DNA from: an uncultured Bdellovibrionales bacterium
GTDB taxonomy: Bacteria > Patescibacteriota > Minisyncoccia > Moranbacterales > UBA2206
NCBI GenBank assembly: GCA_964538685.1
Contig: CAZIFD010000003.1
Location: 757-64,756 of the forward strand
Direction: 5' to 3'
DNA: 64,000 nt
Under the pieces are notes generated by a model. The model had not been told where the DNA came from. It worked only from the letters and a program-made list of their open reading frames with translations, and searched no databases. Position 1 is the stretch's first letter; every line of letters begins with the position of its first letter. The position numbers and the translations under genes were made by a program. Positions 26,941 to 63,333 of the stretch are shown piece after piece.

Positions 26941-27156
26941 AGCCGTAAATTTTGTTAATTAAAAATAAAGTCCAGCCTTTTGGGCTGGTTAACCGGTAAC
27001 TATAAATTGCCAGAAAAACAAAACACCGCGTGCACTAACAAACGCTGGTGATTCTATATTTCAAACTATTAAGGCACTTGGCTCACAATGATAGATTATA
27101 TTCTCATTTAAAAATTTTGCAAGTGCTTGTTTTTATGCATTTTTACAGATGATTTA

Positions 27157-27251
27157 TTCCTGAATTAATTCGGGAATTTGTTGCCAATTAAGTAAGCTAA
27201 TGACCGTCCCAGAATGGTTCTATTTTTTTATTATATCACTAAACAAAAACA
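27157..27251. repeat. 95-bp direct repeat, copy A (94/95 identical to 33651..33745). Contains a near-palindromic operator TTCCTGAATTAATTCGGGAA and a minus-strand extended -10 (TGATATAAT)
   Basis: Direct sequence comparison of the two copies. Confidence 0.85.
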
Positions 27252-33638: not shown

Positions 33639-33650
33639 AAGTTTTATTAA

Positions 33651-33745
33651 TTCCTGAATTAATTCAGGAATTTGTTGCCAATTAAGTAAGCTAATGACCG
33701 TCCCAGAATGGTTCTATTTTTTTATTATATCACTAAACAAAAACA
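33651..33745. repeat. 95-bp direct repeat, copy B. Contains the perfect 20-bp palindrome TTCCTGAATTAATTCAGGAA and a minus-strand TGATATAAT -10 driving the AbrB-like gene
   Basis: Identical to 27157..27251 except one base (A/G inside the palindrome). Confidence 0.85.
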
Positions 33746-37247: not shown

Positions 37248-37315
37248 GTCCTTGTAGCTCAGTGGACCTGCCCGGCATTGCCTTCGGCATCAGCCGATGG
37301 CAGGCGGGTAGAGCG
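37248..37315 (+). other. Duplicated 5' fragment of tRNA-Arg (positions 1-27) with a 43-nt structured hairpin inserted in the D-loop
   Basis: GTCCTTGTAGCTCAGTGG, then ACCTGCCCGGCATTGCCTTCGGCATCAGCCGATGGCAGGCGGG, then TAGAGCG. The intact tRNA follows 30 nt downstream. Confidence 0.5.
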
Positions 37316-37344
37316 CCTCTTGGGATTACAAAAATTAAACAAAA

Positions 37345-37417
37345 GTCCTTGTAGCTCAGTGGATAGAGCGTTTGGTTGCGGTCCAAAAGGTCGCAGGTTC
37401 AATTCCTGCCAAGGACA
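37345..37417 (+). tRNA. tRNA-Arg (anticodon GCG by manual fold; needs tRNAscan confirmation)
   Basis: Cloverleaf: acceptor GTCCTTG/CAAGGAC, D-stem GCTC/GAGC, anticodon stem TTTGG/CCAAA, loop TTGCGGT, T-loop TTCAATT. Confidence 0.75.
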
Positions 37418-37418
37418 C

Positions 37419-38249
37419 CTAGTATTTCTTTTCAAATTCAGCAAATTCTTCTAACATTTCCTGAGTAATTTTTCCGATTTTTCCATTCCCTACTTTCCAA
37501 GAATCAACCTTAACAATCGGAACTACAAATTTATTGGTAGCTGTCAAAAAGATTTCATCAGCTTTTTTGAGCTCATCAATTGAAACTTCCCGCTCTTCAA
37601 CCGGGTATTTTTTCTTAGCCAATTTCAAAACCAAATTCCGAGTAATGCCATGAAGAATTCCGTCTTTGGGAGTGATAATTTTTCCATCTTTGACCATAAA
37701 AATATTACTAGTGGAAGCTTCCAGAACCAATCCGTTTTTCACAAAAAGAATTTCCAAAGCTTTTTGCTTATTTTTTTTATCTTGCAATTTAATCGCTTCC
37801 ACATAGTTTGTGATTTTGCATTTTGGAAGATTTCGGGAAAACTCATGAGTTATGAGTTTAGCGCCCTTGGTATAAATTTCTTCGGGAAGATTGTAAAATC
37901 TTTCAATTAAAATATAGCAAGTCTGTTTTCCGACAGAAAAACCGTTCTCACTCACTCCTCCTGTCAGAACTGTTCTTATGGTTGATTTTTTGTGCCCATG
38001 AAGCTTGAGCAAATTTTTTAGTATTCCCTCATATTCCGAAAATGAAAATGGCACTTTGAGTTCAAGTTCTTTGGCTGAATTTCTAAATCGTTCAAAATGT
38101 TCCTTGCTTAAAAAAGGTTTCTCGCCGTTCGCACACATCACATCAAACACTCCGTAACCACGAAGGATTCCAATGTCATAAGGATCAATTTTTATCTTGT
38201 CCACAGTTGTTATTTTTCCGTTCCAATAGCAATGGTTTTTTTTGGCCAT
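37419..38249 (-). CDS. Class IV aminotransferase (branched-chain / D-amino-acid aminotransferase family)
   Basis: 276 aa with fold-type IV PLP motifs (EASTSNIFMV ... GITR). Confidence 0.75.
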   Translation of the reverse strand: MAKKNHCYWNGKITTVDKIKIDPYDIGILRGYGVFDVMCANGEKPFLSKEHFERFRNSAKELELKVPFSFSEYEGILKNLLKLHGHKKSTIRTVLTGGVSENGFSVGKQTCYILIERFYNLPEEIYTKGAKLITHEFSRNLPKCKITNYVEAIKLQDKKNKQKALEILFVKNGLVLEASTSNIFMVKDGKIITPKDGILHGITRNLVLKLAKKKYPVEEREVSIDELKKADEIFLTATNKFVVPIVKVDSWKVGNGKIGKITQEMLEEFAEFEKKY

Positions 38250-45035: not shown

Positions 45036-46334
45036 TTGTTTATGGGTAAAAAATTGACCACAGTTTTTTTATTATCCTCGGCTTTAATTTTTTTTGAAGC
45101 TTCTTTTTGTCGTGCCGAAACTCAATCTGTTAAAAAATATTTTGACATTCAACTAAAAATAAAAGAGAAAGTCTATAACCTGAAAAAACAAGAAACTGCC
45201 AATTGGCTTTCCAATAAGACTGATTTGACCATTAATTTGGATTATTTGACAGAGATAGAAAATAATAATTTATGCCAATATTTACAATCTCCGATTTGCG
45301 ATTTAACTTTTTCTTCCAATCAAAAACTCCACATCAAAAAAATATCTTCAGTGAATGTTGACCAAAAAGCAATTGAAAATTTTCTGGATAAATTGGCCAA
45401 TGAAATGGATGAAGAACCGAAAAACGCCAAATTTAAAATAGAAGATGGCAAAGTTTCTATGTTTTCGCTCAGCAAAAAGGGAATCTCTCTTGACAAAGAA
45501 AAAAGCTTGAAAAAAATAATGGATTTTTTCCAAGAAAATTCCAATCCGTTTTCCGAAAATTCAACCCTGGAATTACCCTTTTCGGAAACCGAAGCAGAAA
45601 TAGGCATTGATTCAATTGAAAATATGGGAATCACCACTCTTATCGGACAGGGAAAATCAAACTTTCGCGGATCCACCAACAGCCGAATTCATAACATTAA
45701 AACCGCCACCGCCAAATATGACGGTTTACTCATAAAACCTAATGAGGAATTTTCTTTTGTAAAAATTTTAGGAGAGGTTGACGAAGAGCACGGATATTTG
45801 CCCGAACTGGTTATTAAAAAAGATAAAACTGAACCGGAATTCGGAGGCGGAATTTGCCAAGTTTCCACCACTGCTTTCCGGGCCGCCATCTATTCAGGCT
45901 TAGAAATCACCGCCAGAAGGAACCATGCTTATCCAGTTTCTTACTACAATCCTCAAGGGATGGATGCCACTGTTTATGTCCCCCGCCCTGATCTTCGCTT
46001 TGTCAACAATACTCCGGGCTACATCTTGATTCAAACGGAAATCAAAGGAACGGAATTGACTTTCAATTTTTATGGCACCGACGACGGACGCAAAGTTGAG
46101 GTGGACGGTCCGACCATTTTGGAAAAAAACGCTGACGGATCAATGAAAACTTCTTTTACCCAAAAAGTTTTTGACAAAAACGGAAATTCAACAATGGAAA
46201 GCACTTTCAAAAGCAACTATGATTCTCCCGACAAATATCCTCACCCAACCACCACCGAAGATGTTCTGACGGAAAAACCTAAAAGCTGGTCAGATAATGA
46301 ATGGAAAAAATATAAAAAAGAACACGGTCTTTAA
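45036..46334 (+). CDS. VanW family protein (secreted)
   Basis: Signal peptide and VanW signature GGGICQVSTTAFRAA. Confidence 0.8.
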   Translation: MFMGKKLTTVFLLSSALIFFEASFCRAETQSVKKYFDIQLKIKEKVYNLKKQETANWLSNKTDLTINLDYLTEIENNNLCQYLQSPICDLTFSSNQKLHIKKISSVNVDQKAIENFLDKLANEMDEEPKNAKFKIEDGKVSMFSLSKKGISLDKEKSLKKIMDFFQENSNPFSENSTLELPFSETEAEIGIDSIENMGITTLIGQGKSNFRGSTNSRIHNIKTATAKYDGLLIKPNEEFSFVKILGEVDEEHGYLPELVIKKDKTEPEFGGGICQVSTTAFRAAIYSGLEITARRNHAYPVSYYNPQGMDATVYVPRPDLRFVNNTPGYILIQTEIKGTELTFNFYGTDDGRKVEVDGPTILEKNADGSMKTSFTQKVFDKNGNSTMESTFKSNYDSPDKYPHPTTTEDVLTEKPKSWSDNEWKKYKKEHGL

Positions 46335-46401
46335 TTGACTTTTGCTTCTATTTTTGATATATTGTTTCTGTTGTGCCAAGACAAAAAAATAAGCTAAAAA
46401 T

Positions 46402-46474
46402 GCGCTGGTAGCTCAGTGGATAGAGCAGTAGCCTTCTAAGCTATTGGTCGCAGGTCCGATTCCTGCCCAGCGCA
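46402..46474 (+). tRNA. tRNA-Arg (anticodon UCU)
   Basis: Manual fold with anticodon loop CTTCTAA. Confidence 0.8.
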
Positions 46475-46496
46475 CTAAATAATACGAAAAAAGTAC

Positions 46497-46565
46497 GCCC
46501 TTATAGCTCAGTTGGCCCGCCCGGCATCGTCTTCGGCTCAGCCGATGGCGGACGGGTAGAGCAGT
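46497..46565 (+). other. Duplicated 5' fragment of tRNA-Lys (leader plus positions 1-27) with a 41-nt hairpin inserted in the D-loop
   Basis: GCCCTTATAGCTCAGTTGG, then CCCGCCCGGCATCGTCTTCGGCTCAGCCGATGGCGGACGGG, then TAGAGCAG. Same insert family and position as 37266..37308. Confidence 0.5.
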
Positions 46566-46574
46566 AAAAAATAA

Positions 46575-46814
46575 ATGTTTTTTTATACATATGTACTGAA
46601 AAGTGAAAAAGATGATAATTTATATATAGGATTCACCAGTAATTTAAAAAATAGACTGGAAAAACATAACTCGGGAAAAGTAGTCGCCACAAAAAACAGA
46701 AAGCCACTAGAATTAGTTTATTATGAAGCCTGCAAAAATAAGGAAAAAGCCATAGCAAGAGAAAAATATTTCAAGAAAGGATTTGGGAGAAATTTCCTAA
46801 AAAATAGAATATAA
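46575..46814 (+). CDS. GIY-YIG family nuclease (79 aa)
   Basis: FYTYVL...LYIGFTSNLKNRLEKHN...E...KYFKKG matches the GIY-YIG core. Nested between the tRNA-Lys fragment and the intact tRNA-Lys. Confidence 0.75.
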   Translation: MFFYTYVLKSEKDDNLYIGFTSNLKNRLEKHNSGKVVATKNRKPLELVYYEACKNKEKAIAREKYFKKGFGRNFLKNRI

Positions 46815-46821
46815 AAAGTAC

Positions 46822-46894
46822 GCCCTTATAGCTCAGTTGGTAGAGCAGTTGCCTCTTAAGCAAACGGTCCCAGGTTCAAGTCCTGGTGAGGGCA
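46822..46894 (+). tRNA. tRNA-Lys (anticodon CUU)
   Basis: Manual fold with anticodon loop CTCTTAA. Confidence 0.85.
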
Positions 46895-46906
46895 CGGAGA
46901 AAAACA

Positions 46907-46975
46907 TGGCGGGTATAGTTCAATGGTAGAACACTGGTTTGTGGTACCAGCTACCTGGGTCCAATCCATCCGACC
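46907..46975 (+). pseudogene. tRNA-His-like fragment (intact acceptor-5', D-arm and GUG anticodon arm; no matching T-arm or 3' acceptor)
   Basis: GGCGGGTATAGTTCAATGGTAGAAC-A-CTGGT-TTGTGGT-ACCAG, then non-complementary sequence. Confidence 0.3.
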
Positions 46976-47135
46976 AATGACTTTCCAAGATTGGAGATAG
47001 ATTTAATTATAGTGTGAAGTAGCGCCTACTCTATGAGAGCACCTAAGAAAAAAGGGTGTTTTTTGTTCATTAAAAATTAATAATTTCTCATTTCTAGATT
47101 ATAAAGTAATTTTTTGAAATTATGCCTTACTTATT

Positions 47136-50082: not shown

Positions 50083-50156
50083 GGCGATTATCGTCTAACG
50101 GTTAAGACATCGGTTTGTGGTACCGAGAATCAGGGTCCGACTCCCTGTAATCGCCC
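50083..50156 (+). tRNA. tRNA-His (anticodon GUG) with G-1
   Basis: G-1:C73 pair, anticodon loop TTGTGGT and T-arm CAGGG-TCCGACT-CCCTG. Confidence 0.85.
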
Positions 50157-50204
50157 CGATATTGGCTTAATAAATAGATTTAACTCCCTTTATTTTACAA
50201 AGCC

Positions 50205-55597: not shown

Positions 55598-57080
<1,483 letters not shown>

Positions 57081-62922: not shown

Positions 62923-63213
62923 TCATTTAATTATATTGAAATATAAATCATTCCAATTGGGATTATCTTTTTCAATCAATTTTATCTTCCAACTTCTATT
63001 CCATTTTTTAAGTTGTTTTTCTCTAGTGATAGCCGAATTAATATAGTCTGCTTGCTCATAATATACTAATTTGTGTACATTGTATTTTTTTGTGAAACCA
63101 TCCGCTAATTTTTCTCTATGTTCTTGAATTCTCTTGATTAAATTTGAAGTTACTCCGATGTATAAGGTACTGTTTCTTTGATTAGTTAAAATATAAACGA
63201 AATAGCTTTTCAT
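62923..63213 (-). CDS. GIY-YIG family nuclease (96 aa)
   Basis: FVYILTN...LYIGVTSNLIKRIQEHR...E...KQLKKW. Confidence 0.75.
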   Translation of the reverse strand: MKSYFVYILTNQRNSTLYIGVTSNLIKRIQEHREKLADGFTKKYNVHKLVYYEQADYINSAITREKQLKKWNRSWKIKLIEKDNPNWNDLYFNIIK

Positions 63214-63225
63214 TAAACTTTTCCA

Positions 63226-63333
63226 CTGGATTCCCAGTCAAGCTGGGAATGACATAAAAAAATTAAAATTAGCCAGTAGACATTTGGAAATGAGATTTAT
63301 CTTGTTGTCATTCCTGCGAAAGCGGGAATCCAG
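63226..63333. repeat. REP-like palindromic element (CTGGATTCCCAGTCAAGCTGGGAATGACA ... TGTCATTCCTGCGAAAGCGGGAATCCAG), 13 bp upstream of the GIY-YIG start
   Basis: Same hairpin-unit family as 57003..57080, with the units in swapped order. Confidence 0.75.

Follow-up and report, generated by a model that had tools for sequence, protein, structure and literature searches.

Small GIY-YIG nuclease genes and hairpins at the 5' edge of tRNA genes in Patescibacteria

In the 64,000-nt stretch of DNA analyzed here (the window; contig CAZIFD010000003.1 of assembly GCA_964538685.1, positions 757 to 64,756, from an uncultured bacterium of the Patescibacteria), the gene for tRNA-Lys(ctt) is preceded by a second copy of its leader and 5' part that carries a GC-rich hairpin, with an open reading frame (ORF) for a 79-residue GIY-YIG nuclease lying between the two copies. 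This cassette raises the question of what placed a nuclease gene and a hairpin in front of a tRNA gene, and whether the two belong together. The answer that we favor, with a probability of roughly 55%, is that an Ssn-like nuclease and its cognate hairpin constitute a selfish element that parasitizes the 5' edge of tRNA genes in Patescibacteria.

The cassette, its empty sites and its recurrence

The order of the cassette, as described in an earlier note on this DNA, is read directly from the sequence: the leader and nt 1-19 of tRNA-Lys, the 41-nt hairpin, the ORF, and the leader followed by the whole tRNA-Lys gene. The note had also seen that tRNA sequence resumes after the hairpin, which stands, but the resumed part comprises 9 nt (nt 20-28) instead of the 8 nt first read. 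Because this continuation picks up at nt 20, the hairpin is a clean insertion into a 28-nt tRNA 5' fragment. The left copy (46488-46515) is identical to 46813-46840, and with nt 20-28 included the two copies agree at 37 of 37 positions; a repeat search reported a 39-nt direct repeat at the cassette. Nine A-rich bases (46566-46574) separate the continuation from the ORF.

Using the VanW-like gene that neighbors the cluster, we fetched 80 metagenomic loci, whose copies of this gene share 52-71% identity with that of the window. In ~60 of them the VanW-like gene is followed by tRNA genes in the order Arg(tct)/Lys(ctt)/His(gtg)/Arg(tcg), and in none of these ~60 syntenic loci does a 79-aa ORF lie between Arg and Lys, with spacers down to 4-20 nt. 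Judged by gene order, these loci are empty tRNA-Lys sites, and the cassette of the window is an insertion, as the earlier note had proposed. The arrangement is polymorphic among relatives, and hairpin and ORF occur together beside tRNA genes in dozens of genomes, so neither of the outcomes that the note had named as contradicting it was observed. At the orthologous tRNA-Lys of one locus (L173; fetched loci are designated by L numbers), an ORF-less hairpin of another subtype sits at nt 11, which is an independent event.

Only two hairpins of this family were found in the window. The second belongs to an ORF-less twin of the cassette, which precedes tRNA-Arg(gcg) and not the tRNA-Arg(tct) that adjoins the Lys cassette. 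In L176, tRNA-Arg(gcg) has neither fragment nor hairpin while the order of the RecG, aminotransferase, and 203-aa genes is kept, and by the same standard this locus is an empty site for the tRNA-Arg hairpin. The spacer ahead of tRNA-Arg(gcg) begins with TTGGGA, as does a promoter-like site in the 3' end of the Lys ORF. We did not adopt the reading of this spacer as the remnant of a deleted ORF; a resemblance to the last part of the Lys ORF (TTGGGA...AAAAAT), short and not significant, is at most a weak hint that the tRNA-Arg copy arose by deletion from an ORF-bearing element.

A pattern scan using one genome per species confirmed 432 relatives of the ORF, from which 80 loci were kept for analysis. 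The collection scans are pattern-based, so the counts are lower bounds, and the record titles of some fetched genomes name other phyla, which we suspect to be automatic mislabels. The first three relatives examined have different gene neighborhoods and the layout of the window, all at tRNA-Lys, with the hairpin splitting the tRNA at nt 7/8, 11/12, or 19/20. At 71 of the 80 loci, the ORF stop codon is followed within 135 nt by the start of a co-oriented tRNA (median gap, 7 nt); of the nine others, three have sequence ending within 66 nt of the ORF and five have, directly behind the ORF, tRNA-like sequence that ARAGORN did not call. The partner tRNAs represent 15 amino-acid specificities. Identity between two loci from different species (L019 and L021) is 97-100% from the promoter through ORF, hairpin, and tRNA, with ~99% for the last three, against 70-85% upstream, which points to a recent exchange of the module at an orthologous site.

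The complete series of local tRNA 5' fragment, GC-rich insert, continuation of 4-13 nt, ORF, and intact tRNA was found at 47 of the 80 loci (50 overall), with 1 to more than 30 nt of leader co-duplicated. Split positions cluster at nt 18-21 (~40%), 6-9, 10-12, and 13, and none was seen at nt 14-17 or past nt 21. The D-loop, earlier proposed as the target, is not a specific one: the split falls anywhere from nt 3 to 21, with nt 18-21 the commonest. We also rejected the continuation as a fossil of a donor tRNA, because it matches bases specific to the local tRNA (e.g. TAGGAC in Gln, TAGAAC in His). At minimal loci (L042, L020, L027) the insert is the bare ORF, its ATG abutting the fragment and its stop codon abutting tRNA nt 1. 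A second layout, seen with one kind of tRNA-Lys (L019, L021, L024, L030, and others), consists of promoter, ORF, spacer, and a hairpin placed after tRNA nt 3; here the terminal GGG of the hairpin regenerates the tRNA 5' end, so the duplication is not needed.

In the window, the promoter-like site of the tRNA cluster (Table 1) is the only good promoter found for the ORF, and no terminator-like site was found between it and tRNA-Lys, so transcription of the ORF probably takes place as part of the tRNA precursor, from which tRNA processing would free it. A TTGACT...TATAAT box likewise lies ahead of the tRNA cluster in relatives. The last codons of the ORF (46783-46810) contain a promoter-like TTGGGA-16-TAGAAT that faces tRNA-Lys 11 nt downstream. 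Such an outward promoter is possible in the window, but we rejected it as a general feature because the stop codon abuts tRNA nt 1 at many loci.

Table 1 Features of the window discussed in the text.
Feature	Position	Strand	Support
tRNA-Arg(gcg) nt 1-19 fragment (ORF-less twin)	37248..37266	+	
42-nt hairpin element, family and orientation as in the Lys copy	37267..37308	+	
TAGAGCG, tRNA nt 20-26 (37309-37315), and 29-nt spacer	37309..37344	+	
Intact tRNA-Arg(gcg)	37345..37419	+	ARAGORN, Rfam
Promoter-like site of the tRNA cluster, TTGACT-17-TATATT, with TG ahead of the -10	46335..46363	+	
tRNA-Arg(tct), upstream neighbor in the conserved cluster	46402..46475	+	ARAGORN, Rfam
Left target copy: 9-nt leader AAAAAGTAC, then tRNA-Lys(ctt) nt 1-19	46488-46496, 46497-46515	+	
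41-nt GC-rich imperfect palindrome (hairpin element)	46516..46556	+	Fold z-scores, family covariation
TAGAGCAGT, 9 nt, tRNA-Lys nt 20-28 resuming after the hairpin	46557..46565	+	
Gene for the 79-aa single-domain GIY-YIG nuclease	46575..46814	+	Pfam PF01541, E 9e-19
Right copy: leader, then intact tRNA-Lys(ctt)	46813-46821, 46822-46895	+	ARAGORN; Rfam 69.4 bits
Second small GIY-YIG gene, 96 aa, SsnA-like paralog	62926-63213	-	

Several other irregularities were observed in these tRNA clusters. In the window, a truncated tRNA-His without its 3' end follows tRNA-Lys (46909-46983); a working tRNA-His lies 3.1 kb away (50084-50157), with ddl and an M15/VanY peptidase gene intervening, and tRNA-Arg(tcg), the last tRNA of the cluster in relatives, is missing, so the cluster is broken. 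In L033, L057, and L079, tRNA-Asn-like and tRNA-Lys-like genes missed by ARAGORN stand directly after the ORF and seem to be interrupted in the anticodon loop, which fits the group I introns reported for Patescibacteria (PMC13011429). In L175 (3320-3790), an intact tRNA-Arg(ccg) comes after two tandem units in which tRNA-Arg nt 1-11 are joined to the 15-nt mini-hairpin TCCGCCAGAGGCGGA and a further 28 nt; the principle is that of the cassette, with a different hairpin and no ORF. A recurrent element of ~100 nt (gggaaaggggtcgggaaaacg.gagttttcccgtggtggaag...) without an Rfam match occupies tRNA T-arms in L102, L116, L121, and L173, all in tRNA clusters after the VanW-like gene, and in L020 (4300-4500); a tRNA 3' fragment and trailer are repeated after it, mirroring the 5' duplication of the cassette. 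Finally, an element with terminal inverted repeats (CACGCCCCGCACCAAA...TTTGGTGCGGGGTG) that carries a whole tRNA-Lys gene (L116, L157, L097, L112) sits in an older tRNA-Lys, whose 5' and 3' pieces flank it.

The hairpin family and its nuclease

The hairpins measure mostly 35-50 nt and are longer where one copy is nested in another (L025, L042, L055, L084, L040). In the 634 kb of fetched loci and the window, ~70 hairpin sites, which are nearly all of the hairpins, lie within 400 nt of a GIY-YIG ORF, and ~60 of 84 ORFs have a hairpin nearby, most often 4-44 nt away. Those checked beyond 400 nt are mostly in tRNA-derived DNA, e.g. in pseudo-tRNA copies downstream of the working gene (L089, L061, L053) or in the T-loop of a 3' fragment (L075). 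One tRNA fragment holds two hairpins (L058), and in L088, L083, L085, and L045 a fragment with a hairpin is present on both sides of the ORF. No counterpart of the hairpin was found in Rfam.

In the consensus fold, the outer stem has 6 bp (CCYGCC/GGCRGG) and carries a CGGG tail of 4 nt; a bulge of 2 nt, a second stem of 4-5 bp, and a variable apical stem complete it. A 4-nt periodicity allows either strand, in either register, to form a similar hairpin shape. Folded alone as DNA and compared with shuffled sequences, the two strands of the window's hairpins gave z-scores of -3.05 and -2.91 (Lys) and -4.73 and -2.49 (Arg), and the score is just -0.92 once tRNA flanks are included. The compensatory change between the Arg and Lys hairpins (CCGCC/GGCGG versus CTGCC/GGCAG), earlier taken to argue for selection on structure, is present, and that argument is now backed by covariation across 39 distinct family copies: 82% of cells pair, compared with 33-44% for slid partners, and double changes number 25 against 9.2 in shuffles, a value reached by 0 of 500 shuffles. 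These alignments support the hairpin as a selected structure.

Identical 47-mers stand in opposite orientation relative to the ORF and tRNA in L069 and L056, and both orientations are common, indicating that the hairpin is a palindromic element at the DNA level; this rules out a strand-specific RNA motif. The distance from hairpin to ATG (5-52 nt) is alike for the two orientations. Hairpin similarity follows protein identity (Mantel r 0.23, p 0.0005) and shows no correlation with tRNA type (r 0.01, p 0.36). Since the hairpin tracks the protein and not the tRNA type, ORF and hairpin travel and diverge jointly while the tRNA partner changes. From these sequence comparisons, we consider the small GIY-YIG ORF and the hairpin to be a cognate pair.

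The Pfam GIY-YIG match spans residues 3-72 of the 79, leaving nothing beyond the catalytic domain, and Y6, Y17, G19, R27, H31, and E63 are invariant in 25 homologs; the protein is assigned to the GIY-YIG nuclease superfamily. Relatives of 78-80 aa that are 65-80% identical number in the hundreds, the named ones being Patescibacteria, and the protein is conserved over very distant lineages. The closest solved structures are the UPF0213 proteins BH0048 and EF2693, and next Slx1. The earlier note regarded the protein as a homing endonuclease. One feature of such enzymes, presence/absence polymorphism at a conserved site, is seen in the ~60 ORF-less syntenic loci, but the separate DNA-binding region is missing from the 79-aa protein and from its 78-80 aa homologs, and the nearest characterized relatives cut single-stranded DNA (ssDNA) adjoining a hairpin, so we do not retain this identity.

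Two NTS/dRS3-like hairpin repeats (63230-63250 and 63310-63329) stand in opposite orientation ahead of the second small GIY-YIG gene of the window (Table 1), and the layout of 62926-63329 is that described for SsnA. The window's only other NTS-like repeats form an ORF-less inverted pair between atpD and atpG (57007-57076). The 79-aa protein is 39% identical to the NTS-flanked paralog (E 9e-13), and its family profile scores 49.9 bits on this paralog versus 38.5 and 32 bits on the UPF0213 structures. Like an Ssn system, the cassette combines a small single-domain GIY-YIG protein with a hairpin-forming inverted repeat of 20-50 nt flanking the gene (at ~60 of 84 ORFs); the NTS/SRM repeat (GTCATTCCC...GGGAATC) is not the one present, the hairpin here being CCYGCC...GGCRGG-CGGG. 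We suggest by analogy that the 79-aa protein works like an Ssn pair, a claim that stops short of membership in cd10448.

Two further observations concern small GIY-YIG genes. A distant paralog (36-49% identical) is located 14-42 nt downstream of the same tRNA-Lys in L018 (3615-3809), L034 (4439-4666), and L067 (373-567), so that tRNA-Lys is sandwiched between two small nuclease genes. Of the three GIY-YIG genes that had been counted in the window, each next to a repeat, two are detectable (those of Table 1), and none was detected at the 100-nt direct repeat (27152-27251 and 33646-33745, 98% identical). This repeat brackets a 6.5-kb block in which a type I restriction S subunit is encoded together with a LexA-like gene, adjoining a Bro-N protein, possibly a mobile island.

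Explanations for the module

Several known kinds of insert do not fit. A tRNA intron or ribozyme does not fit, as an intact tRNA-Lys follows and Rfam returned only tRNA-related matches for 46300-47100 (E up to 1). An integrase-borne island targeting tRNA genes was discarded because the insert is one 79-aa ORF with no integrase and the 5' segment, not the 3' segment, is duplicated. Membership in REP/RAYT or IS200/IS605 was likewise rejected, since there is no HUH (Y1) transposase and the sole ORF encodes the GIY-YIG protein.

Other explanations share part of the evidence with the selfish element. In classical homing, the GIY-YIG protein would break both strands of empty tRNA genes, repair would copy the ORF in, and the hairpin-split fragment would be a disrupted recognition site. 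Empty sites at both tRNA-Lys and tRNA-Arg(gcg), the recent exchange between L019 and L021, and an essential, conserved target gene are in keeping with it, as is T4 SegB, reported to be a GIY-YIG homing endonuclease in a tRNA cluster (PMC2330249). We nevertheless consider homing improbable: the 79 residues hold the catalytic domain only, without a DNA-binding module, an intact and hence cleavable tRNA copy adjoins the gene, the hairpin position varies from nt 3 to 21, and the element sits beside 15 kinds of tRNA. Moreover, co-conversion from a donor at a different tRNA cannot account for fragments that match the local tRNA. We give a similarly low weight to a module that serves the host, either with nuclease and hairpin modulating the recombination of incoming DNA at tRNA loci or with the hairpin as a 5' stem-loop that stabilizes or regulates a small mRNA cut from the tRNA precursor. 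The pair is missing in ~60 syntenic relatives and its tRNA partner varies, whereas such patchiness is not expected of a fixed host function; the nesting and tandem repetition of copies and the decay of fragments have a parasitic look; and the hairpin occurs in both orientations, its G-T pairs turning into A-C mismatches when flipped, which is at odds with a sequence-specific RNA role. Such a module would be in line with the restriction of transformation by SsnA through NTS repeats in Neisseria (PMC11893778), with the hairpin lying 5-52 nt ahead of the ATG in most loci, with an ORF inside a terminator-less tRNA transcription unit, and with the conservation of the protein over very distant lineages.

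The least probable of these explanations is that two independent things meet at tRNA genes, namely an autonomous miniature palindrome favoring tRNA-like DNA and an ORF that merely makes use of the space upstream of tRNA genes, which is safe and well transcribed; the fragments would then be decaying tRNA duplications. Hairpins in ORF-less fragments do exist (at the window's tRNA-Arg, in L173, and as second copies in L059 and L058), and unrelated mini-hairpins and ORF-less partial tRNA duplications are common in these clusters, but nearly all hairpins of the family are found at most 400 nt away from an ORF, and their type follows the ORF lineage and not the tRNA type. In addition, Ssn genes as a rule show the same pairing of a small GIY-YIG gene and a hairpin that flanks it (PMC11893778).

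For the selfish element that we prefer, the following course of events can be proposed. By analogy with Ssn nucleases, the minimal GIY-YIG nuclease of Ssn/UPF0213 type would most likely recognize the hairpin, an imperfect palindrome of 36-48 nt, as a folded single DNA strand; such a strand might become accessible at replication forks, in DNA entering by transformation, or where heavy transcription of tRNA genes displaces one strand. The ORF lies between a tRNA and its promoter or inside a tRNA cluster, with the hairpin alongside in tRNA-derived DNA, and the duplicated leader and tRNA 5' part leave one tRNA copy intact. Expression probably occurs as a passenger of the tRNA transcript, the RNase P cut at the tRNA 5' end setting the 3' end of the mRNA. 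Repair by the host of breaks beside the hairpin could yield local duplications, tandem copies, and orientation flips. The module would spread mainly when it recombines as a whole into the orthologous tRNA locus of another cell, for which natural transformation is a plausible route, and jumps to other tRNA genes would be rarer. The upstream copy may once have been a longer pseudo-tRNA that was trimmed to the hairpin and a short flank; long hairpin-bearing pseudo-tRNA copies exist in L089, L061, and L112.

Several points weigh against the selfish element. Joining DNA strands is not possible for a hydrolytic GIY-YIG nuclease itself, which makes insertion dependent on host repair, and the model leaves unexplained both the constant continuation of 4-13 nt of tRNA after the hairpin and the duplication of leader and 5' part. 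A ruler-like cut, by analogy with SsnA and IS608, was rejected as an explanation, given the continuation of 4-13 nt, the hairpin-to-ATG distances of 5-52 nt, and the lack of effect of orientation. Recent exchange was found in a single case, and the ORFs, at 65-80% identity, make up a star-like set, so that many copies may be old residents. Relatives without the cassette are just 52-71% identical in the VanW-like protein, and identity in flanking proteins is only 52-77% for the best syntenic ones, which is too low to date the insertion. Finally, UPF0213 proteins come closest among solved structures, and the sequence of the hairpin has no relation to the NTS/SRM motif.

A bolder version, which we put forward tentatively and consider rather unlikely, is a new class of minimal mobile elements in which a 240-nt gene for a hydrolytic nuclease and a 40-nt hairpin would invade the DNA of tRNA genes that heavy transcription leaves single-stranded, restore the tRNA through duplication of its leader and 5' part, and be expressed as a passenger of the tRNA precursor. 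If true, it would represent a route of transposition or homing without transposase, integrase, or intron, and it would also explain the many partial tRNA duplications in Patescibacteria tRNA clusters.

Comparison with known systems

Integrative elements in tRNA genes also use an essential tRNA gene as a landing site and keep it intact by a flanking duplicated part, as here. Those elements duplicate the 3' part, employ tyrosine or serine integrases, and are kilobases long, whereas the present cassette duplicates the 5' part, has no integrase, and adds ~300 nt. To our knowledge, targeting of the upstream side of tRNA genes has been known mainly from eukaryotic retroelements. In mitochondria, GC clusters and double-hairpin elements are mobile GC-rich hairpins in AT-rich genomes, and insertions of GIY-YIG ORFs that duplicate a gene end, e.g. 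in Allomyces atp6, leave a fragment beside the restored gene. These cases are organellar, affect protein-coding targets, and duplicate the 3' end, and we know of no cognate relation between nuclease and hairpin shown for them.

If the selfish element that we favor is real, it would give hairpin-directed ssDNA nucleases a concrete selfish lifestyle and a defined genomic niche, provide an example from prokaryotes in which the upstream side of tRNA genes is targeted, and demonstrate residence in an essential gene without an intron, by means of a duplicated 5' part. The loci are also a systematic source of tRNA pseudo-fragments and misannotation in Patescibacteria genomes, and they offer a natural panel of nuclease-hairpin pairs for ssDNA tools.

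Among systems with a small nuclease and a palindrome, REP/REPIN-RAYT and IS200/IS605 (PMC2817692, PMC3116915) share a short GC-rich extragenic palindrome flanking a small nuclease gene and the recognition of a single-stranded hairpin, but they differ in their HUH tyrosine transposase, covalent intermediates, hundreds of dispersed repeats, and lack of association with tRNA genes. Among the free-standing GIY-YIG homing endonucleases of T4-like phages, SegB is reported (PMC2330249) to be likewise encoded by a GIY-YIG gene among tRNA genes, polymorphic in presence, and able to promote the inheritance of its own region; it is a multi-domain protein that cuts double-stranded DNA in a phage context, and it is not known to have a hairpin partner or to cause partial tRNA duplication. 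The rRNA genes of CPR bacteria contain non-intron insertions encoding GIY-YIG proteins (PMC11270868). These belong to the same phylum and are again GIY-YIG ORFs in insertions that match no intron family within structural-RNA genes, but their targets are rRNA genes, they are described as sparse, and neither a hairpin partner nor a duplication is reported.

The nearest system is Ssn/NTS. SsnA is the founding member of a single-domain GIY-YIG family with catalytic residues Y6, Y17, and E64; Ssn nucleases bind their flanking hairpin repeat only as ssDNA, cut a few nt 5' of the hairpin, and are inactive on duplex DNA and on RNA, and their layout was likened to an insertion sequence by Chenal et al. 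(Nat Commun 2025; PMC11893778). In both systems, a single-domain GIY-YIG nuclease of 80-100 aa with equivalent Tyr6, Tyr17, and Glu63/64 has its own hairpin-forming inverted repeat of 20-50 nt flanking the gene, and nuclease and repeat co-vary. The present hairpin differs in being unrelated to ATTCCC-N8-GGGAAT and in occurring in few copies confined to tRNA-derived DNA, while NTS repeats number in the hundreds; here, the ORF is almost always found directly 5' of a tRNA gene, part of which is duplicated, and the hosts are Patescibacteria. The Ssn paper (PMC11893778) mentions neither tRNA nor Patescibacteria, and literature searches on GIY-YIG with tRNA and Patescibacteria and on COG2827/UPF0213/YhbQ turned up no account of the niche at the tRNA 5' edge, the partial 5' duplication, or this hairpin family. 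In summary, small GIY-YIG genes paired with flanking hairpins have been known since 2025, and the loci described here add to them the niche at the 5' edge of tRNA genes, the duplication of the tRNA 5' part, and a different hairpin family.

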